64,000 bases of DNA. Origin: Terriglobales bacterium (GTDB taxonomy: Bacteria; Chloroflexota; Dormibacteria; Dormibacterales; Dormibacteraceae). Below are positions 1 through 32,276 of this stretch, piece by piece. Position 1 is the first letter of the stretch. Each line of letters begins with the position of its first letter. A program made the translations under genes and the position numbers. The notes under the pieces are model-generated. The model searched no databases, was not told the origin of the DNA, and saw only the letters and a list, made by a program, of their open reading frames with translations. The stretch spans positions 33,452-97,451 of the forward strand of contig DASQZW010000251.1 in assembly GCA_035638495.1 (NCBI GenBank), given 5' to 3'.

Positions 1-82
1 CGGACGGGGACGTCTGTGGCATTGATCGCGGAGTCGCTCGTTGCCATTACACCTCCTCTTGTAATGGTCATTCTAACCAGAA

Positions 83-332
83 CCCTCCGGACCCCGGGGG
101 CCTCCTCGCCCGCTAGGGGGAGGGATCTCTGTCTTAGCGACCCCCCCTCCGGGCCCTGGGGGGCCCTCCTCCCCCGCTGGGGGGGAGGGAGCTCTGTCTT
201 AGCGACCCCCCCTCCGGGCCCTGGGGCCCTCCTCCCCCGCTGGGGGGGAGGGAGCTCTGTCTCAGCGATCCCCCCTCCGGGCCCTGGGGGCCCTCCTCCC
301 CCGCTGGGGGGGAGGGAGCTCTGTCTCAGCGA
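83..332. repeat. Tandem array of four ~63-65 bp GC-rich hairpin units. Each unit = CCCCCCCTCCGG + GGGCCC-loop-GGGCCC hairpin + CCTCCCCC-GCT-GGGGGGGAGG hairpin + CTCTGTCTYAGCGA linker.
   Basis: Read directly. Units start at about 83 (degenerate), 140, 205 and 268. The same module occurs at 16368-16434, 16717-16783 and 26651-26713. The array ends 26 nt before the ATG at 358. Confidence 0.9.
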
Positions 333-14946: not shown

Positions 14947-15141
14947 ATGTCAAAGAGGCGGCGCAAGGCGGAGATCAAGGTCATGGCGCTTCCAAACGCC
15001 TTCCAGAGCGAGACCGCGGCGTGCCCGGTCTGCGGGAAGGACGCGCTGGCCTTTGGTCGCCGCGCGATGCAGATCGTGTTCCGGTGCCCGGGGTGCAAAG
15101 TGCTGTTCAAGCGCGCCCACAACCTGTCGTTCGACTTCTGA
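14947..15141 (+). CDS. Small zinc-ribbon protein (two CxxC pairs)
   Basis: 64 aa, with CPVCGK...CPGCK. Third-codon positions are strongly G/C, as in neighbouring genes. Confidence 0.6.
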   Translation: MSKRRRKAEIKVMALPNAFQSETAACPVCGKDALAFGRRAMQIVFRCPGCKVLFKRAHNLSFDF

Positions 15142-15172
15142 AGCCGGCCGTACCGCCGGCGCGGAGCGGCCT

Positions 15173-16270
15173 ATGAGGCGAGGGTTCAGGCGCGGCCTGG
15201 CGATGGGCGCCCTGTCCGGCCTCGTCGCCGTGATGGTGGCAGAAGCCATGCGACCGCGCGGGGGCAGCACGCTGCTGCTCGACTGGGACGAGGTCACCCG
15301 ACTGGCGACCGCCGGCCTGCGCGAGGAGCGCGTGCCTCCGGACCGGCTGACCGCCATCACGACCGCGTACAACGGCCTGGCGGCCGGCCTCAGGGCGCCG
15401 CTGCTGGAGACCGTGGGCGGCCTGCCGGCCGGTGCCCGGCTGCCGGACTTTCAGGCTCTCGACCGGGCCAGCTGGCTGGATCTGAACGTCGGCATCCTGC
15501 GTCGCGTCATGGAGCCGCTGGCGGCCGTGACGCGCGTGCCGGAGTCCTGGCTCGCCGTGGCGGGCCGAGCGGGCCTGAACCGGTACGTCGCGCTCATGCT
15601 CGTGTACCTGGGCCGGCGCGTGCTCGGCCAGTTCGACCCGCAGCTGCTCGGACGGGAGCCGGTCCACCCGGCCCTGTACCTCGTCGAGCCCAACGTGGCG
15701 GCCTGGGAGGACCAGGCGAAGCTGGACGGCACGGACCTCCGGCGCTGGCTGATCCTGCATGAGATGACGCACGCATGGCAGTTCGCCGGCCACCCCTGGC
15801 TGCGCGACCACCTGGACAGCCAGATCGACGCGCTGGTCGGCCTGGCCGTCCGCACCGCGACAGGAGGCGGACTGCAGCGCCTCCGTGCGGTCGCCGGCGC
15901 TCCGTCGCAGTGGGACCTGGTGCGGCACATGCAGGCGACGATGTCGCTGGTGGAGGGGCACGGCAACCTCGTGATGAGCCTGGTGGGGCAGCGGGCGCTG
16001 CCCTCGTTCGCGCGACTGGACGCGGCCTACCGCCGGCGCAGCGGCGAGCGGGGCCCGCTCGAACGGCTGCTCTGGCGCGTGACCGGACTGGAGATGAAGA
16101 TGGAGCAGTACCGGGTGGGCGAGCGGTTCGCGCGGGACGTGCACGACCACTACGGCATGGAGGTGCTGAACCGCGCGTGGGACGGCCCCGAGGCGCTGCC
16201 GCGACCCGATGAGCTGAGCGCGCCCGACCGCTGGTACCGCCGCGTCGTCCGCGCAGGCGCGCCGCGGTGA
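15173..16270 (+). CDS. Zinc-dependent metalloprotease, DUF2342 / F420-biosynthesis-associated hydrolase family
   Basis: LHEMTHAWQF (HExxH) in the characteristic context. ATG 15173 inside ORF 15053..16270. Confidence 0.75.
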   Translation: MRRGFRRGLAMGALSGLVAVMVAEAMRPRGGSTLLLDWDEVTRLATAGLREERVPPDRLTAITTAYNGLAAGLRAPLLETVGGLPAGARLPDFQALDRASWLDLNVGILRRVMEPLAAVTRVPESWLAVAGRAGLNRYVALMLVYLGRRVLGQFDPQLLGREPVHPALYLVEPNVAAWEDQAKLDGTDLRRWLILHEMTHAWQFAGHPWLRDHLDSQIDALVGLAVRTATGGGLQRLRAVAGAPSQWDLVRHMQATMSLVEGHGNLVMSLVGQRALPSFARLDAAYRRRSGERGPLERLLWRVTGLEMKMEQYRVGERFARDVHDHYGMEVLNRAWDGPEALPRPDELSAPDRWYRRVVRAGAPR

Positions 16271-16434
16271 GAACGATGTCCCTCTCCCCTTGCGGGAGAG
16301 GTGGGTCCGCCAGGACCCGGAGGGGGGTTTGCTGAGACGAGCCGGCGATTCGGTGCCGTCCGTTCCGAGCGACCCCCCCTCCGGCCCGTGACCGGGCCAC
16401 CTCCCCCGCGAGGGGGGAGGGATCGTGTCTACAC
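16269..16434 (+). repeat. 166-bp structured GC-rich element, copy R1 (module A + module B)
   Basis: Identical to 16618-16783 except for a few substitutions. Contains at least four hairpins. Starts within the stop codon of the upstream gene. Confidence 0.95.
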
Positions 16435-16617
16435 GACGCGGCCCGCGATCGAGCGAAGCCTCCGGGCCGCCAGTCCGGACCTGACCGGCGACCAGCTCCG
16501 CGACAGCGTCACGTACGGATACTTCTCCTCGTGGGTGCTCGTCGCGGTCGTTCTGGCGGTGCTCGCGGTCGGCGCCGTGCAGCTGCCCACGAACGCTCTC
16601 GCGCTTGCGAGCCCGGC
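16435..16617 (+). pseudogene. Decayed partial duplicate of the membrane-protein gene at 16784-17249
   Basis: Aligns to 16866-17115 (TRPAIERSLRAASPDLTGDQLRDSV...LPTNALALASP) with scattered substitutions. About 70 nt are missing internally and about 80 nt at the 5' end. Confidence 0.85.
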
Positions 16618-17249
16618 GAGAACGATGTCCCTCCCCCCTTGCGGGGGAGGTGGGTCCGCCAGGACCCGGAGGGGGGTTTGCTGAGACGAGCCGGCGATTC
16701 GGTGCCGTCCGTTCCAAGCGACCCCCCCTCCGGCCCGTGACCGGGCCACCTCCCCCGCGAGGGGGGAGGGATCGCGTCCACACCGCCTGGACGCTGCCGC
16801 TGCGCGGGGCCACCGCCGGCTACCTGCTGCTCGCCGCGCTCGTGGAGCTGGTCACGAACGCCCTCTACGAGACGCGACCCGCGATCGAGCGAAGCCTCCG
16901 GGCGGCCAGTCCGGACCTGACCGGCGACCAGCTCCGCGACAGCGTCACGTTCGGATACGTCTCGTCGTGGGTGCTCGTCGCGGCCGTGGTCGCGGGCGCC
17001 GCGGTGCTGTCGCTCGGCGCCTACCGCGGCTGGCGGTGGGCGTTCTGGGTCAGTCTGGCGGTGCTCGCCGTCGGCGCCGTGCAGCTCCCCACGAACGCTC
17101 TCGCGCTTGCGAGCCCGGCCACACAGATCCAGCCGCCGGCGGCGATCGCCGTCGAACTGGGCTTCTCCCTCCTGGCGCTCGGCCTGCTCGTCTGGTCAAT
17201 TCTGGCCGCTGCCCGATACGGCCCCTGGGCGATGCGACGGCCCGGTTAG
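16605..17249 (+). CDS. Small polytopic membrane protein; 5' end undefined
   Basis: Hydrophobic segments YLLLAALVELV, WVLVAAVVAGAAVL, AFWVSLAVLAVGAV and LGFSLLALGLLVW. The only in-frame starts are TTG 16605 and GTG 16650 (both inside repeat R2) or GTG 16842 (which would cut the first helix). Confidence 0.5.
   Translation: MRARRERCPSPLAGEVGPPGPGGGFAETSRRFGAVRSKRPPLRPVTGPPPPRGGRDRVHTAWTLPLRGATAGYLLLAALVELVTNALYETRPAIERSLRAASPDLTGDQLRDSVTFGYVSSWVLVAAVVAGAAVLSLGAYRGWRWAFWVSLAVLAVGAVQLPTNALALASPATQIQPPAAIAVELGFSLLALGLLVWSILAAARYGPWAMRRPG
16618..16783 (+). repeat. 166-bp structured GC-rich element, copy R2
   Basis: Offset of exactly 349 bp from R1. Carries a compensatory T:A to C:G change in the first hairpin relative to R1. 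Confidence 0.95.
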
Positions 17250-17698
17250 TCCCGGATCTCCTCCTCCGCAGTCTCGGCGGAGATGGGCAGGACCGCGACC
17301 GGCAGCTCCGAGATGTCGAAGTAGCGAACGGGCTTGCTCATACGCTTGGCGATGCCGACCTGCACCTTCACGCCCAGTGAGATGCGCCCGAACACCCAGA
17401 CCTCGTCACTGCGGGCCAGGAGGTTGTTCATCGCCTCCCGCACCACGGTCTTGGGCACTGTGTGGAGCAGGTAGTAGTCGAAGAGCATGAACGGACTGAC
17501 AGGCACCATCCCCGAGTCCAGGACGAACTTCTGGACGTGGTTGCGCCAGTAGAAGTTGCGATTGGACATCGCGACGTAGACCAGGCGCTTGGGGTGCCTG
17601 AGCGTCTGCTCGGCCTGGTCCAGGGCGCTCGGCTTGGTGGTGGGCCGGAAGATCCGCTCGAGGATGTCCTCGGCAAACCTGCCCGAAACGACTTCCAT
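17246..17698 (-). CDS. Hypothetical protein, possibly nucleoside 2-deoxyribosyltransferase-like fold
   Basis: 150-aa ORF with visibly lower GC than its neighbours. VYVAMS...DEVWVFG.ISLGVKVQVGIAKRMSKPV resembles the strand/helix pattern of that fold. Weak call. Confidence 0.5.
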   Translation of the reverse strand: MEVVSGRFAEDILERIFRPTTKPSALDQAEQTLRHPKRLVYVAMSNRNFYWRNHVQKFVLDSGMVPVSPFMLFDYYLLHTVPKTVVREAMNNLLARSDEVWVFGRISLGVKVQVGIAKRMSKPVRYFDISELPVAVLPISAETAEEEIRD

Positions 17699-24105: not shown

Positions 24106-26520
24106 CTACGTGCGCTTGATGACGTCGCGTTCCATGGCCTGCACCGCGCTGCGGATCGCGCCATGGAGGGGGAGCCTGGCCTGACGCAGCGCGAACTCGA
24201 GCTGCCGCAGCATCGAGTACAGGCCCTTCATCGCCTTGATCGCGTCGCCGATGTCGACGTTGGCCGGCAGTGGGATCGTGTCCATCGCCTCACCCGAAGC
24301 CCAGCGGTGCGCGAAGTCGATGTAGTCGTACGACGGCGGGCGCAGGTTGGGTTCGTCCAGGTCCTGCTCCAGGTCTGCGAAGCGGAAGTACAGGGCGCGC
24401 AGGAGCCGCGCCGTCTGGCCCACCGCCGGCGTCGGGTAGCGGCGCACCTGCCGGGGACCGCGGTCCCGACCGCGGTCCTCCGTGGCCAGCATGGCCAGCG
24501 CCGCGCACAGGTCCGCCGGCCCCAGCCCGTCCAGCCAGCCGTTCCACACGGCCTCGGTGACCAGGAGCGTGTTCTCGCCGTAGACCCGAGCCGCCAGCAG
24601 GCCCTTGTCGGTGGGCTTGTCATCCGCGAGGAACCCGGTCTCGGACAGGATCCGGCAGAGCCGGCGCAGCTTGCGCTGGTACTCGTCTGCCTGCTCCCTG
24701 ATCGCGCGCTCGCCGTCACGCAGCTCGCGCTCGAGCGCCCGGCGCTCCCCGTATGCCGCGAGGTGTTCGGTGAACCGGGGGCACTGCACCACCGGGAGCT
24801 TGCGCTGCCGCGCCTGCACCTGCTTGCGCTCCTCCTCCAGCTGGTGGAGCTGCCGCCCAGCCGCTCCGTGGGGCCGGCCCTTGAACCCGCCCCTGCCGCG
24901 GCCGCGGCGCGGCACCGGCACCGCCTCGCGGCGCAGCCGGCGGATCTCGATCCGGATCGCGCGGAGGCGGTCCTCGATCCTGAAGTACTCGCTCACGTCC
25001 TCCGGGCGGCAGCGCGTGCAGTCCCACGTCGCGTCGAGGTCGTGGAGCCGCGCCCGGATGTTCTCGAGCCGGTCGACCGTGTGGTCCGCGGCCAGGCGTT
25101 TCTGGAACTGGCCGAACGACCGCTCCATCAGCTCGTCGGCCTGCTCGGGCGTGTAGAGGCGGAGCAGGTTGAGCGCCATGTTGTAGCTGGGCAGGAACCG
25201 CGACTCGACCACGAGTCCCTCGCCCATCGCGACCTCGTAGATCGTGCCGATCTCGACGTCCGCCTCCTTGAGGATGACGCCGTGGCCAATCGTGTCGATG
25301 CCGCGCCGGCCGGCCCTGCCCATGAGCTGCGTCAGCTCGCCGGTGGTCAGCGTCGCGAAGTTGACGCCGTCGAACTTGGTGAAGGATGACACCACGACGG
25401 CCCTGGCGGGCATGTTGATCCCGAGCGACAGTGTCTCGGTAGCGAACACTACCTTGAGCAGCCCGGCCTGGAAGAGCTCCTCCACCAGCTCCTTGTGGTA
25501 GGGGAGCAGGCCGGCGTGGTGCACCGCCAGGCCACGCCGGAGCATGTCGGCGTCGGCCATCTGCTGGAACAGCGCCGCCTCGTCCGGGTCCGTCAGCGAG
25601 CGCAGGCGCTCGGCGGCCAGCTGATCGATCATGCGCTTCTCGCGGCCCGTCGTCAGGTCGAACTCGTGGAAGGCGCAGCGCTGCAGCGCCTCCCGGCAGC
25701 CCCGCCGCGAGAAGATGAAATAGATCGCGGGAACCATGTCCAGCCGGCGCAGCTCGCCGATGACGCGCAGCATGTCGTTGGACGGCAGGTGGCGGAACCC
25801 ACGCACGCGGAAGCTGGCCTCCTCCTCTTCGGCCGCGCGGGACCACGTCTCCTGGTCGATGCCGCCGTCCGGCGCGAACAGCCTGTGGAAGCGATTGCGC
25901 ATGGCGAGCCAGAGTCGGAGCTCAGTCGGTCGCTCCTCGTGGAAGACGGTGGCGACCGGCCCGCGGTTCTCGGACATCCAGCGCGCCAGCTCCGCGTAGT
26001 TGCCGATGGTGGCGGACAGCCCCACGAGCTTGATGTGGCTGGGCGCCTGGATGATGACCTCCTCCCAGACCGAGCCGCGGGGGAAGTCGTCGATGTAGTG
26101 GACCTCGTCCAGCACGACGTACCCGACCGGGTCGAGGCGGGGCAGGTCCTCGTAGATGACGTTGCGCAGGATCTCGGTCGTCATGACCACGATCGGCGCC
26201 TCGTCGTTGATGGTGTTCTCGCCGGTCACCAGGCCGATGTGCTCCTCGCCGAACTCGCGCTGGAAGTCGCGGTACTTCTGGTTGCTCAGCGCCTTGAGCG
26301 GCGTGGTGTAGATGACCTTGGTGCCCTCGCGCCGCGCCCGGAAGTTGCAGTAGTCGGCCACCACCGTCTTGCCGCTGGAGGTGGGCGCGCTCACGAGGAC
26401 GCCCCGGTGGGTGTCCAGCTTTTCGATCGCCTCGACCTGGAACGCGTCCAGCGGCCAGGGCCGGGTCGCGCGGAACTCGTCCAGGGAGGTGCGGGTCTCG
26501 GTCTCGATGGGAGTGATGCT
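24106..26520 (-). CDS. Ski2/HelY-like DEAD/DEAH-box helicase; start codon unresolved
   Basis: APTSSGKT (Walker A), LDEVHYI (DEVH) and LSATIGN motifs. There is no ATG/GTG/TTG between 26520 and the conserved PLDAFQ motif. The nearest in-frame starts (TTG 26727, ATG 26745) read through the repeat element. Confidence 0.85.
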   Translation of the reverse strand, partial: SITPIETETRTSLDEFRATRPWPLDAFQVEAIEKLDTHRGVLVSAPTSSGKTVVADYCNFRARREGTKVIYTTPLKALSNQKYRDFQREFGEEHIGLVTGENTINDEAPIVVMTTEILRNVIYEDLPRLDPVGYVVLDEVHYIDDFPRGSVWEEVIIQAPSHIKLVGLSATIGNYAELARWMSENRGPVATVFHEERPTELRLWLAMRNRFHRLFAPDGGIDQETWSRAAEEEEASFRVRGFRHLPSNDMLRVIGELRRLDMVPAIYFIFSRRGCREALQRCAFHEFDLTTGREKRMIDQLAAERLRSLTDPDEAALFQQMADADMLRRGLAVHHAGLLPYHKELVEELFQAGLLKVVFATETLSLGINMPARAVVVSSFTKFDGVNFATLTTGELTQLMGRAGRRGIDTIGHGVILKEADVEIGTIYEVAMGEGLVVESRFLPSYNMALNLLRLYTPEQADELMERSFGQFQKRLAADHTVDRLENIRARLHDLDATWDCTRCRPEDVSEYFRIEDRLRAIRIEIRRLRREAVPVPRRGRGRGGFKGRPHGAAGRQLHQLEEERKQVQARQRKLPVVQCPRFTEHLAAYGERRALERELRDGERAIREQADEYQRKLRRLCRILSETGFLADDKPTDKGLLAARVYGENTLLVTEAVWNGWLDGLGPADLCAALAMLATEDRGRDRGPRQVRRYPTPAVGQTARLLRALYFRFADLEQDLDEPNLRPPSYDYIDFAHRWASGEAMDTIPLPANVDIGDAIKAMKGLYSMLRQLEFALRQARLPLHGAIRSAVQAMERDVIKRT

Positions 26521-26545
26521 ACAAGGGCGCGCGCACGGGCCTGAC

Positions 26546-26713
26546 AGGTCCCTCCCCCTTCGCGGGGGAGGTGGGTCCCCGAAGGGACCCGGAGGGGGGT
26601 CGCTCGGAGAACCGAATCGGTGCGCCGAGTAAGGAGCGGGGTCTTGTCTTGGCGACCCCCCCCACCGGCCGCTGGGGCGGCCACCTCCCCCGCGACGGGG
26701 GAGGGACTCTGTG
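26546..26713 (+). repeat. Full-length structured GC-rich element, copy R3 (diverged)
   Basis: Same hairpin order as R1/R2 with different loops and covarying stems (GGGTCCC-CGAA-GGGACCC; GGCCGC-TGGG-GCGGCC). Fills the divergent helicase / CoA-transferase spacer. Confidence 0.9.
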
Positions 26714-26746
26714 GGGCGGGTCCCCAAGCGTACGCTAACGGGCATC

Positions 26747-27946
26747 GTGGGCCAGGACGAGTCGAACCCCGCCCCCCAGCCGCTGGCCGGCATCAGGGTG
26801 CTCGACCTCACGCACGCGCTCGCCGGACCGTACTGCACGATGCTGCTCGGCGACCTCGGGGCGGACGTGATCAAGGTGGAGGCCCCGGGCGACGGCGATC
26901 ACGCGCGCCGCTGGGGCCCGCCATTCGTCAACGGCGAGTCGAGCTACTTCCTCTCGGTCAACCGGAACAAGCGCAGCGTGGCCCTGGACCTGAAGCACGA
27001 GGCGGGCCTCCAGGCGGCGGTGGACCTGGCGCTCGCCAGTGACGTCCTGGTCGAGAACTTCCGTCCCGGGACTGCCGCCCGGCTCGGGCTCGGCTGGGAC
27101 GCGCTTCACGAGCGCCGGCCGCAGCTCGTGTACGCCTCGATCAGTGGATTCGGGCAGGGCCGGCCTCAGCTGGCCGGATATGACCAGATCGCCCAGGGCA
27201 CGTCCGGCCTGATGAGCATCACCGGCGAGCCCAAGGGCCAGCCGGTCAAGAGCGGCGTCCCGGTCGGGGACATCGTGGCCGGCATGTTCGCCGCCCACGC
27301 GATCCTGGCCGCCCTCGTGGAGCGGGCGACGTCGGGTTCCGGCCGGTACATCGACGTCGCGCTGAACGACAGCCTCCTGGCCATCCTCACATACCAGGCC
27401 GGGCGCTACTTCGCCACGGGGGCGCCGCCCGGCCGGGACGGCAACCACCACCCGACCGTCGCGCCGTACGGCACGTTCGCGACCAGGGACGGTCACGTGA
27501 ACCTGGCGGTCGGCTCGGACGAGCAGTACCGGCGTTTTTGCGAGACGCTGCAGGCGCCGGAGCTCGCCGGCGACCCGCGCTTCGCGACAAACGCCGACCG
27601 GCAGACGGCTCGGGCCGAGCTCGTGATCGAGATCGAGCGCCGGTTGACGCGGCGCACCACGGGCGAGTGGCTCGCGCGGATGGAGGCGGCGGGCATCCCG
27701 GCCGGCCCCATCCTCGACCTGGCAACCGCGTTCTCCGACCCCGTCGCGGTCGGGCGGGACATGCACGTCGAGGTCGAGCACCCGGTGGCGGGGCGGATCG
27801 GCCAGGTCGGAGCGCCATGGAAGCTGGATGGCCGGTCGGCTCCGATCCGGACGCCGCCACCGCTGCTGGGCCAGCACACGGCGGAGGTGCTGACCGACGT
27901 GCTGGGCTACACAGCGGACCAAATCGGGGCCGTCCGGCCGGACTGA
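26747..27946 (+). CDS. Family III CoA-transferase (CaiB/BaiF type)
   Basis: PLAGIRVLDLTHALAGPYCTMLLGDLGADVIKVE N-terminus. Start at GTG 26747, with an alternative at GTG 26711. Confidence 0.85.
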   Translation: MGQDESNPAPQPLAGIRVLDLTHALAGPYCTMLLGDLGADVIKVEAPGDGDHARRWGPPFVNGESSYFLSVNRNKRSVALDLKHEAGLQAAVDLALASDVLVENFRPGTAARLGLGWDALHERRPQLVYASISGFGQGRPQLAGYDQIAQGTSGLMSITGEPKGQPVKSGVPVGDIVAGMFAAHAILAALVERATSGSGRYIDVALNDSLLAILTYQAGRYFATGAPPGRDGNHHPTVAPYGTFATRDGHVNLAVGSDEQYRRFCETLQAPELAGDPRFATNADRQTARAELVIEIERRLTRRTTGEWLARMEAAGIPAGPILDLATAFSDPVAVGRDMHVEVEHPVAGRIGQVGAPWKLDGRSAPIRTPPPLLGQHTAEVLTDVLGYTADQIGAVRPD

Positions 27947-31924: not shown

Positions 31925-31950
31925 CCGTTCGCCGACATCCCCCACCCCGA

Positions 31951-31972
31951 CCCTCCCCCCGGCGGGGGAGGG
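31951..31972. repeat. Solo hairpin CCCTCCCCC-CGGC-GGGGGAGGG of the repeat family (terminator-like)
   Basis: 9-bp stem between convergent genes (31924 end, 31986 end). Confidence 0.8.
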
Positions 31973-31985
31973 CGGCGGGGCGGAC

Positions 31986-32276
31986 CTACATGCGGATCAG
32001 CTCCGTCGAGACATCGGCCACCCGGGCCTCGACCGCGGACCGCTCCACGAAGGACAGGATGTGTGCGAGCACCTCGTCGCAGTGCGCGCCCTCGGCGCTG
32101 ACGCAGGCGATGCCCAGGTGGGCCAGCTGCCAGCGGTCCCGCTCGCCGATTTCCGCTGCCGCGACCTGGAACTGCTGCCGGACGCGCCGGAGCAGGCCGC
32201 CGACCACCTGGCGCTTGGCCTTCAGGGAACCACTATTTGGGAGGTGAAGGGTTAGTCTGAGTATGCCGATGACCAT
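31986..32276 (-). CDS. DUF503 (YlxP-like) protein
   Basis: 96 aa: LRLTLHLPNSGSLKAKRQVVGGLLRRVRQQFQVAAAEIGERDRWQ matches the DUF503 pattern. Confidence 0.7.
   Translation of the reverse strand: MVIGILRLTLHLPNSGSLKAKRQVVGGLLRRVRQQFQVAAAEIGERDRWQLAHLGIACVSAEGAHCDEVLAHILSFVERSAVEARVADVSTELIRM

Follow-up and report, generated by a model that had tools for sequence, protein, structure and literature searches.

How does a conserved membrane-protein gene come to stand behind two copies of a palindromic repeat and a broken copy of itself, with no canonical start codon between the repeat and its first transmembrane helix? This arrangement lies at 16.2–17.3 kb of the window (the whole stretch of 64,000 nucleotides that was analysed), which belongs to an uncultured Candidatus Dormibacterota bacterium of about 70% G+C, the phylum having been named via a scan of genome contigs. 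The membrane-protein gene follows a Zincin_2 gene, and the two form a translationally coupled pair in this lineage, with overlapping stop and start codons (GTGA). The convergent DUF7768 gene downstream, where conserved gene order ends, also neighbours the pair in five relatives (L003, L006, L007, L008, L009). The membrane protein has four predicted transmembrane helices and 29 homologues, with a conserved part starting at 16782 (T-A-W-T-L-P-L-R), and Pfam and NCBIfam returned only sub-threshold noise for it (MFS_1, BioY, HGxxPAAW); one relative touches DUF3040. Judging by a dN/dS of 0.16–0.24 against its relatives, the gene is evidently under purifying selection. The features of the locus and of the repeat family in the window are collected in the table.

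Features of the duplicated locus and of its repeat family, in window coordinates.
Feature	Position	Strand	Details
Upstream gene, Zincin_2 / DUF2342 metallopeptidase-like protein, F420-biosynthesis-associated subfamily	15053–16270	+	Pfam PF10103, E=1.9e-59; TIGR03883, E=5.8e-77
Zincin_2 stop codon TGA	16268–16270	+	
GTGA overlap of Zincin_2 stop (TGA 16268–16270) and ancestral membrane-gene start (GTG 16267–16269)	16267–16270	+	Relatives and window sequence
Remnant of the ancestral frame, 22 codons	16267–16335	+	From GTG 16267 to TGA in the inverted left unit of R1; translation VRTMSLSPCGRGGSARTRRGVC, then stop
Copy 1 of the tandem duplication, 349 nt	16269–16617	+	Segment comparison with copy 2
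Element copy R1, palindromic doublet	16279–16422	.	Inverted unit 16279–16338 (minus strand), spacer 16339–16361, direct unit 16362–16422
98-codon ORF across the fragment	16388–16684	+	From the counterpart of the gene's GTG in R1 to the element-borne TGA 16682–16684 in R2
Decayed gene fragment	16423–16617	+	12 nt of the gene's 5' end (R-V-Y-T), then gene 16871–~16987 and ~17054–17119
Copy 2 of the tandem duplication, 502 nt, intact, running on into the remaining gene	16618–17119	+	Segment comparison
Element copy R2	16628–16771	.	Inverted unit 16628–16687, spacer 16688–16710, direct unit 16711–16771
Surviving membrane-protein gene, 170 aa	16737–17249	+	From GTG 16737; P0001 is the called product
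Convergent downstream gene DUF7768, limit of conserved gene order	17246–17698	-	Pfam PF24963
R3, third, diverged doublet of the R1/R2 family	26549–26706	.	Alignment to R1/R2
Head-to-tail array of four units of the R1/R2 family	72–317	+	Period 63–65 nt

A structure of this kind might simply stem from metagenome assembly, with a repeat joined wrongly or expanded. A metagenome-derived contig of a repeat-rich genome, as the source evidently is, would favour such an origin, as would a contig from another sample (L032) that breaks within the gene at 17037, beside the duplicated stretch. Against it, two separately assembled JGI soil samples (contigs L001 and L002) are identical to the window over 16073–17389, i.e. 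across the whole structure. Short Logan contigs, taken from four runs that belong to four studies, cover the joints from zincin to R1, R1 to fragment, fragment to R2 and R2 to gene without differences and carry bases specific to R1 or to R2, and no joint that skips the 349 nt was seen among them. Divergence of about 4% between the copies, together with two deletions, is moreover nothing that an assembler would make up. Since every junction is reproduced in independent soil-metagenome contigs and in four public runs, an assembly artefact is for practical purposes refuted and we give it next to no weight; the original prediction of two element copies stands as far as their presence is concerned.

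Their spacing was also predicted correctly: 16265–16434 and 16614–16783 are 96% identical at a distance of 349 nt, and for a 28-nt core the window has exactly two occurrences (0 expected). Beyond the repeat, two blocks of the fragment align with the gene, 16428–16569 to 16864–17005 (offset 436) and 16546–16617 to 17048–17119 (offset 502), and the 349-bp unit 16269–16617 corresponds to the 502 bp of 16618–17119 minus two in-frame deletions, one of 87 nt after 16434 and one of 66 nt near 16546–16551. Both gaps had been noticed earlier, at about 80 and about 70 nt; the 5' one (16784–16870) measures 87 nt and the internal one 66 nt, both divisible by three, and homology to the gene runs to 17119 instead of ending at about 17115. 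Copy 1 thus opens with a local leader of 10 nt, which is followed by the element (144 nt), by 12 nt from the gene's 5' end and by the gene fragment. Mismatches are spread over the element part (5/166, 3.0%) and the two parts of the fragment (5/111, 4.5%, and 4/72, 5.6%). The two segments are head-to-tail neighbours with common unique flanks and similar divergence throughout.

The same figures bear on whether two independent insertions of a mobile element might have come to flank a gene fragment that was an older paralogue, without any single duplication event. The family is mobile or at least multi-copy, and REP-like elements prefer sites just past stop codons (R3 lies 4 nt after one), but R1 and R2 have non-family flanks in common on both sides (10 and 12 nt), element and fragment are equally diverged, both copies keep one reading-frame register (the offset of 349 being 3n+1 throughout), and a second copy of the membrane gene was found in no relative. 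We regard independent insertions as very improbable. Because the element and gene parts are equally diverged, by about 4%, and the unique flanks of the element were copied too, the original proposal is borne out: a single tandem duplication took in the repeat and the 5' two-thirds of the gene, and the upstream copy then decayed.

Where the proposal fails is in placing one endpoint of the duplication exactly at the boundary of a 166-bp element. The first 10 nt (GAGAACGATG) and the last 12 nt (TCGCGTCCACAC) of those 166 bp are local gene sequence and not repeat family, which leaves an element of 144 nt. Family homology with the third copy in the window runs from (G)TCCCTCC to GGGAGGGA, and in contigs from the soil runs the loose ends of other genomic copies of the element cluster at 16623–16627 and 16771–16773. 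At the site of the element end a relative with one hairpin keeps GGTGAGTACGAGTA, and other relatives have CGCGTTCC(C/G)ACC, coding R-V-P-T. The 3' tail of R1 (TGTCTACAC) resembles the linker between array units (CTCTGTCTTAGC) and was considered as family sequence, a membership ruled out by the loose-end positions, the R3 alignment and the orthologous R-V-P-T codons. The duplicated unit starts 10 nt upstream of the element, its left end (16269) lying within GTGA 16267–16270. Given that both ends of the 166 bp are local sequence and the family boundaries lie further in, the junction falls inside the stop/start overlap, where the only microhomology is an imperfect CGG(T/C) of 3–4 nt; to judge from this layout, the element ends take no part in it.

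Each unit of the repeat family (about 60 nt) consists of GTCTyAGCGA, a C7TCC box, a small variable stem-loop and a main stem-loop CCTCCCCC-GCGAG-GGGGGAGG. Two inverted units and a spacer make up the doublet, a 144-nt palindrome with two stem-loops per unit, and in R1 the doublet folds as DNA at -63.5 kcal/mol (z = -6.6). R2 differs from R1 at 3 of 144 positions, and 16634C/16646G in R2 versus 16285T/16297A in R1 is a compensatory pair in the left main hairpin. The main hairpin has nine matches in the window (0.04 expected) and the C-box seven (0.54 expected); complete units number at least ten, at three loci in the 64 kb, in addition to a partial unit at 72–125. R3 sits between two co-directional ORFs and begins just past the upstream stop codon. 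Among 13 units, 94% of cells are paired and six pairs are changed on both sides, a level that none of 500 shuffles reaches. Word depth in four soil runs is 50–690 over the element versus 3–15 over its flanks (roughly 5- to 100-fold), with many different loose ends at unit borders. The family is a high-copy one that resembles REP sequences, and its doublet is built like a REPIN. A CRISPR-like reading of the array at 72–317 was rejected because its units abut without unique spacers.

According to the published definitions of REPs and REPINs (PMC3337134, PMC3116915), we find here both a short imperfect palindrome in many copies per genome and, in R1, R2 and R3, inverted units around homologous spacers. 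Like the REPs and REPINs of Pseudomonas and enterobacteria, the repeats are short, G+C-rich, multi-copy stem-loops, mostly located between co-directional genes just past stop codons; a single long hairpin can form from two inverted units with their spacer, there are singlets and tandem clusters besides the doublets, and compensatory changes keep the stems paired. The units differ in their size (about 60 nt, with two stem-loops and a C7TCC box, versus 20–40 nt in REPs) and in their ends: REP palindromes bear at one end a GTAG (or CGTC) tetranucleotide that is conserved (PMC3733652), and the units here begin with GTCTyAGCGA and end with GGGAGGGA, without GTAG. CGTC adjoins some units (R1L and R1R of R1, and L008) and is absent beside others (the array units and R3).

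A further reading is that the element itself drove the event. A hairpin transposase (RAYT or IS200/IS605-type, single-strand 'peel and paste') might have taken a false end within the gene and re-inserted the element, together with the gene's 5' part, beside the original; the REPIN-like doublet would suit such a route, REPINs being thought to be moved by RAYTs (PMC3337134, PMC3116915), and the locus is structurally unstable in relatives. The duplicated unit, however, starts 10 nt before the family sequence does, and no hairpin lies at its other end. The unit ends bear no GTAG tag, with CGTC near some units only (definition in PMC3733652), and in the surroundings of the locus no transposase gene, such as a RAYT (Y1/HUH), was seen. 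Transposase action is therefore improbable, and the earlier claim that ties the element to a rearrangement holds in a general sense only, given the at least seven structural states found at this spot in close relatives, and not in the sense of a junction at an element end.

MITEs would show terminal inverted repeats and a target-site duplication; inverted arms are present here, and the flanks (GAACGATG / TCGTGTCT at R1, CTGACAGG / CTCTGTGG at R3) extend the palindrome and are not direct repeats. No hairpin has the trailing T run that an intrinsic terminator (G+C-rich hairpin plus T run) would carry, scans for promoter and terminator consensus sequences gave no match, and neither did an Rfam scan of 14–19 kb with permissive filters. 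The MIRUs attributed to Supply et al. 1997 are reportedly repeats of 50–100 nt between operon genes, with tandem arrays and small ORFs overlapping stop and start codons; the array at 72–317 and the 22-codon ORF starting in GTGA are reminiscent of them, but MIRUs are not known as palindromic doublets, and in the window the overlap with the downstream start has been lost. To our knowledge, REPINs have not been described from Dormibacterota, nor did our literature search show any, and the REP/REPIN-like family of this phylum is previously undescribed.

We consider it probable, with good confidence, that a repeat settled in the N-terminal tail of the membrane protein, that its doublet form blocked the reading frame, and that a 502-bp tandem duplication followed by upstream decay produced the present layout. 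As the anatomy of the copies suggests, a segment that begins with the third base of the ancestral start codon and reaches about codon 113 of the conserved part would have been duplicated in tandem by illegitimate recombination at the imperfect CGG(T/C) microhomology, and the upstream copy would later have dropped its 87 and 66 nt at short imperfect repeats and acquired a few substitutions, to end as a presumably non-functional remnant. The palindrome would probably have had only an indirect role, as a hairpin former promoting replication slippage or template switching nearby. As to the order of events, the doublet may have come first and decayed in relatives, or a single unit may have come first and been joined by a second one in the window's lineage; the deletions would have followed the duplication. 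In all this there is no essential difference from microhomology-mediated tandem duplication with pseudogenisation, which likewise gives head-to-tail copies with 3–4 nt of imperfect homology, later deletions at short repeats, and one constrained and one decaying copy; special here is only the strong palindrome within the duplicated unit. On the whole this is a rearrangement of a common kind, next to a repeat family that is undescribed yet holds no surprise. It changes general biology little, as small tandem duplications by hairpin-forming repeats are to be expected, in this case leaving a dead fragment behind.

Comparison with relatives shows what the repeat did to the gene pair. In five of them (L003, L006, L007, L026 and the P0004 contig, JGI 3300047160) the genes overlap by 4 nt at GTGA, and the ORF stays open, in frame, through shorter repeat remnants. 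In the clade of close relatives (at least 75% amino-acid identity), a family copy or remnant lies just past GTGA, in the poorly conserved N-terminal tail. Elsewhere the frame is blocked and a GTG in a small hairpin is called as start (L008), an ATG stands 5 nt past the stop (L009/L025), or the junction has no element (L027). Stop codon and conserved motif are 56–182 nt apart in about 25 loci and 511 nt apart only in the window; the closest relative (P0003, 88% identity, ENA ERZ27276473) has a 299-nt gap. The scan of genome contigs yielded only distant Dormibacterota relatives (at most 47% identity), without the repeat family and without a pre-duplication state, and none of the 15 loci from the scan of metagenome contigs has a doublet without duplication. 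The states that the junction takes (no element, single hairpin, unit, doublet, duplicated doublet) form a series that shows both in-frame tolerance in an N-terminal tail and the severing of a gene from its coupled start. The in-frame state recalls the Rickettsia palindromic elements (RPE), which are discussed together with intragenic REPs in PMC3733652: in the relatives, too, a palindromic repeat would lie within a coding region and supply in-frame residues in an apparently tolerant part of the protein. In sequence the repeats are unrelated to RPE, and the in-frame state is confined to one locus and to the relatives, with the ORF open through the remnant in five of them and closed in L008 and in the window, where the element breaks the frame.

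Comparison with these relatives places the ancestral start at GTG 16267, upstream of R1. The extra inverted left unit of the element brings a TGA into the ancestral frame together with a shift of +1, and the start codon is missing because this inverted half severs the gene from GTG 16267. It had been noted that no canonical start lies between the element and the first transmembrane helix, and indeed no in-frame ATG, GTG or TTG occurs from 16784 until GTG 16842, which is already within that helix. Further upstream the in-frame candidates are TTG 16605 (13 nt before R2), GTG 16650 and GTG 16737. With the TGA and the frameshift from the inverted half-unit, the likeliest start is GTG 16737 inside R2, in the small stem-loop of the right unit, where translation most likely now begins; the product is predicted to start with M/V-TGPPPPRGGRDR. 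There is no Shine-Dalgarno-like purine run ahead of this GTG, and a search for RNA runs covering the membrane gene found none. Placing the ancestral start in the GTGA overlap corrects the missing-start annotation problem of this gene.

Might the upstream copy have been kept for a use? Its 98-codon ORF could serve as a leader that opens the R2 palindrome, with ribosomes delivered 53 nt upstream of the gene's GTG and coupling to Zincin_2 partly restored, or it could encode a one-helix mini-protein. Both deletions are in frame, the ORF has the same geometry of element-borne GTG start and TGA stop as the short ORF after Zincin_2, five of the seven differences away from the junction of the 66-nt deletion fall at third codon positions, and the duplication is fixed in all near-identical contigs. 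The in-frame deletions combined with the preserved start/stop geometry (about 1 in 9 by chance) could hint at residual translation. Against a use stand a dN/dS of 0.46 between gene and fragment, based on tiny counts, and derived changes in the fragment that amount to two non-synonymous and two synonymous substitutions besides the two deletions, with TM1 and half of TM2–TM3 gone. A search for the fragment as a separate protein family gave full-length family members only, no gene is called between the zincin and membrane genes in L001 or L002, leaving the 98-codon ORF uncalled, and no relative needs such a leader. The fragment is thus no independent conserved small gene, which was one of the findings expected to overturn the original prediction, and a useful upstream copy is unlikely. 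The specific version in which a REPIN-like element supplies a GTG start from the loop of its small stem-loop and a TGA stop from its inverted unit, and so rewires the Zincin_2/membrane coupling, with the duplicate kept as a translated, R2-unfolding leader, has likewise only a slim chance of being right; were it true, the tandem duplication would have compensated for the rewired translational coupling.

Modest value lies in the repeat family, in the series of junction states and in the corrected start. A REP/REPIN-like family is now defined in an uncultured soil phylum, with its unit structure and stem covariation, which aids annotation. As a side observation, gene callers at present translate repeats of this family as N-terminal extensions rich in proline, glycine and arginine.

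The window contains a real and fixed tandem duplication of small size, with a pseudogene fragment as its upstream copy; it adjoins and includes a REPIN-like palindromic doublet (two inverted units and a spacer) of an undescribed Dormibacterota repeat family. Comparison of the window with itself gave 96% identity between 16265–16434 and 16614–16783, with a start-to-start spacing of 349 nt, and a 28-nt core of the repeat occurred exactly twice in the 64 kb, whereas 100 shuffles gave none. Between the two repeat copies (R1 and R2) lies sequence that aligns with the downstream ORF as two blocks. Base by base, copy 1, the upstream half of the duplication, equals copy 2, the downstream half, minus 87 nt (16784–16870) and minus 66 nt (~16988–17053). 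The original prediction of two copies of a 166-bp element around a gene fragment was thus right, small numerical corrections aside. Its tandem-duplication model is also supported, since the mismatches across three blocks (5/166, 5/111 and 4/72) show the 166-bp part and the gene fragment to be equally diverged.

Coordinates of the duplication, repeat loci and flanking ORFs in the window, and the repeat at the same junction in loci of relatives (L numbers)
Feature	Position	Size	Description
Upstream ORF	15053–16270		Zincin_2/DUF2342 protein
Downstream ORF			small four-helix membrane protein; no Pfam family; 29 homologues
Copy 1	16269–16617	349 nt	upstream half, decayed
Copy 2	16618–17119	502 nt	downstream half, intact
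Block 1	16428–16569		matches 16864–17005; offset 436
Block 2	16546–16617		matches 17048–17119; offset 502
Unit array	72–317	four units, 58–65 nt	head-to-tail, without unique spacers; repeat hits 95–349
R3	26549–26706		diverged doublet; first base 4 nt past upstream stop codon
L003			one main hairpin only
L009/L025			small and main hairpin; new ATG 5 nt past stop
L007, L026			one in-frame unit
L006		219 aa	one in-frame unit and extra insert
L008			one unit; ATGA frame blocked by TGA; called start is GTG in small hairpin
L027 (62% identity)			no repeat at all

This structure does not stem from misassembly. Two JGI soil metagenome samples each have a contig encoding the membrane-gene product (P0001), and both contigs are collinear with the window without gaps and differ from it only outside 16073–17389. 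Logan contigs from four public soil runs (four studies) reproduce the same arrangement, covering 16118–16327, 16298–16395, 16396–16498, 16469–16617, 16588–16670, 16647–16747 and 16745–16934 with zero differences, bases that distinguish R1 from R2 included, and no joint skipping 349 nt was reported among them. Another JGI contig (L032, Ga0126371_10027511), 100% identical to the window, starts within the membrane gene at 17037, adjoining the stretch common to gene and fragment; the duplication has evidently broken some short-read assemblies, as at this start.

The two deletions in copy 1 sit at short imperfect repeats (TC.AC and GG.C..T) and took out TM1 and the TM2–TM3 junction. When changes were polarised with six outgroups, those derived in the fragment were two non-synonymous (F to Y, V to F) and two synonymous, and those of the full gene synonymous only. 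No gene caller called the fragment as a gene, and 5.8 billion proteins held no separate homologue of it, which speaks against an independent conserved small gene. Together with the deletions and the amino acid changes, this marks the fragment as a decaying remnant, bearing out the predicted decay of the first copy. There is a small chance, judging from the reading frame, that translation of a 98-codon ORF in copy 1 (16388–16684) persists: the two deletions, being multiples of three, are in frame, and the ORF has the same element-borne TGA as its end, 53 nt before the GTG of the gene, that the short ORF has in R1. The membrane gene itself is not decaying, because its dN/dS against five relatives (0.16–0.24) is not above the values among the relatives themselves.

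Each 166-bp stretch is an imperfect palindrome in its own right by inverted-repeat comparison, and folds as single-stranded DNA at −63.5 kcal/mol (shuffles, −41.6 ± 3.3). The main hairpin CCTCCCCCGCNNGGGGGGAGGGA has nine matches in the window against 0.04 expected and the box GCGACCCCCCCTCCGG seven against 0.54, family matches being confined to the unit array, R1/R2 and a third doublet, R3. An ORF starting at ATG 358 lies directly downstream of the array, and R3 is flanked by two co-directional ORFs (25495–26544 and 26711–27946). The family unit (~60 nt) consists of GTCTyAGCGA, C7TCC, a small stem-loop, which varies in sequence and keeps its pairing, and the main stem-loop. Across 13 units, 94% of cells held standard pairs and 6 of 14 pairs had changed on both sides, values that none of 500 shuffles reached and that lay far above all slid controls; R1 and R2 themselves differ by a compensatory pair (16285T/16297A vs 16634C/16646G). 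Word depth in the four soil runs was 50–690 in the element against 3–15 in its flanks, with many unrelated loose ends at 16367–16377, 16422–16423, 16623–16627, 16722–16726 and 16771–16773. The family is therefore high-copy in this and related genomes, its borders being unit borders, and together with the R3 alignment these data place the element proper at 16279–16422 and 16628–16771 (144 nt). By these borders, the 166 bp begin with 10 nt (GAGAACGATG) and end with 12 nt (TCGCGTCCACAC) of local sequence, co-duplicated. The element had no Rfam match, and no terminator-like T run was found at it. Since R1/R2 and R3 have homologous doublet spacers, parts of which can still be recognised in L006, L007 and L026, sequence comparison suggests that the full doublet was present early and then trimmed differently in each lineage. 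A lone minus-strand hairpin at ~31935–31990 (GCCCTCCCCCGCCGGGGGGAGGGTC) resembles the main stem-loop without C-box and small hairpin; it may be a unit that has eroded, or an unrelated hairpin rich in G+C. Just ahead of the array, 40–80 is unusually A+T-rich for a 70% G+C genome and holds a perfect 8-bp inverted repeat (CCATTACA ... TGTAATGG).

In L003 (same gene order as the window over 6.5 kb), L006, L007, L026 and the contig of the homologue P0004, the membrane gene starts at a GTG overlapping the Zincin_2 stop (GTGA), and the window has a matching GGTGA at 16266–16270. From GTG 16267 the frame is open for 22 codons and then meets a stop in the inverted left unit, and the membrane-gene frame is shifted by +1 relative to it; this explains the lack of a start codon between element and first helix, which had been noticed correctly. 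The most likely candidate start is the one chosen by the gene caller, GTG 16737 in the small stem-loop of R2's right unit, whose equivalent is called in L008 and L040; a purine-rich ribosome-binding site is absent ahead of it, and a search for RNA data on the gene returned none. Repeat remnants appear in the protein alignment as P/G/R-rich N-terminal extensions (e.g. SERPPHRAVDGPPHPREGRD), and the in-frame ones of the relatives would act in the manner of intragenic REPs, Rickettsia palindromic elements among them (PMC3733652). L040 (Logan contig, SRR23411702, 1–200), a relative at 84% identity, has the conserved P-T-S-W-T-L-P-L-R motif deleted and sequence other than Zincin_2 upstream of its partial unit; it is either a further rearranged junction state or a chimeric contig with its joint at the repeat.

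The duplicated unit runs from 16269, where the ancestral GTG has its third base and the Zincin_2 TGA its second, to 17119. Ahead of the junction, all that the two parental sequences have in common is CGG(T/C); past it, matches are scattered. Because neither end falls at a family boundary or hairpin, the event looks like an ordinary illegitimate (microhomology-level) tandem duplication and not element-end-specific recombination. The proposed endpoint at the exact element boundary thus fails, and with it that part of the tie between element and rearrangement. A looser link is plausible: close relatives show at least seven structural states of the Zincin_2/membrane-gene junction. As general background, replication slippage and template switching are known effects of long palindromes. 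The duplication itself is an ordinary event. Neither the repeat family nor the natural series of states at this junction is surprising, but both can aid annotation and serve as an example.

REPINs, two inverted REPs with a spacer, are high-copy elements that lie shortly past stop codons (PMC3337134, PMC3116915). The window doublet matches this architecture, but each of its units is longer, with two hairpins, and the GTAG/CGTC tag by which the large REP superfamilies are defined (PMC3733652) is either missing or inconsistent here. A classical MITE was rejected, target-site duplications being absent at the flanks of the window copies. The head-to-tail array at 72–317, similar to MIRU/VNTR in period and setting, and the short ORF beginning in the window's GTGA are reminiscent of MIRUs. 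A full-text literature search turned up no account of repeats of this kind in Dormibacterota.

The order Zincin_2 then membrane gene is kept in ~25 fetched loci. The first conserved codon (T of P-T-S/A-W-T) lies 56–182 nt past the Zincin_2 stop throughout, the sole exceptions being the window and the two contigs near-identical to it, at 511 nt. Genome-collection relatives were all Candidatus Dormibacterota MAGs (≤47% identity), with loci lacking the repeat. Distant homologues of the membrane protein, P0021–P0029, have a conserved N-terminal module of ~36 residues (…VGEISADGQFRWDGAEWAPLARGH…, alignment columns 30–90), lost in close relatives, where repeat remnants sit in its place. An internal repeat (16841–16865 vs 17078–17102; LV(E/Q)L(V/P)TNAL at the ends of helices 1 and 3) suggests a putative ancient two-helix duplication inside the gene. 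Elsewhere, long diverged direct repeats (28.8–31.9 vs 33.0–36.2 kb and 36.3–37.1 vs 37.4–38.1 kb; 70–79% identity, spacing ~4.2–4.3 kb and ~1.07 kb) have the appearance of paralogous transporter operons and paired ATPase genes, and a Walker-A-like GESGSGKS motif lies in the repeat.
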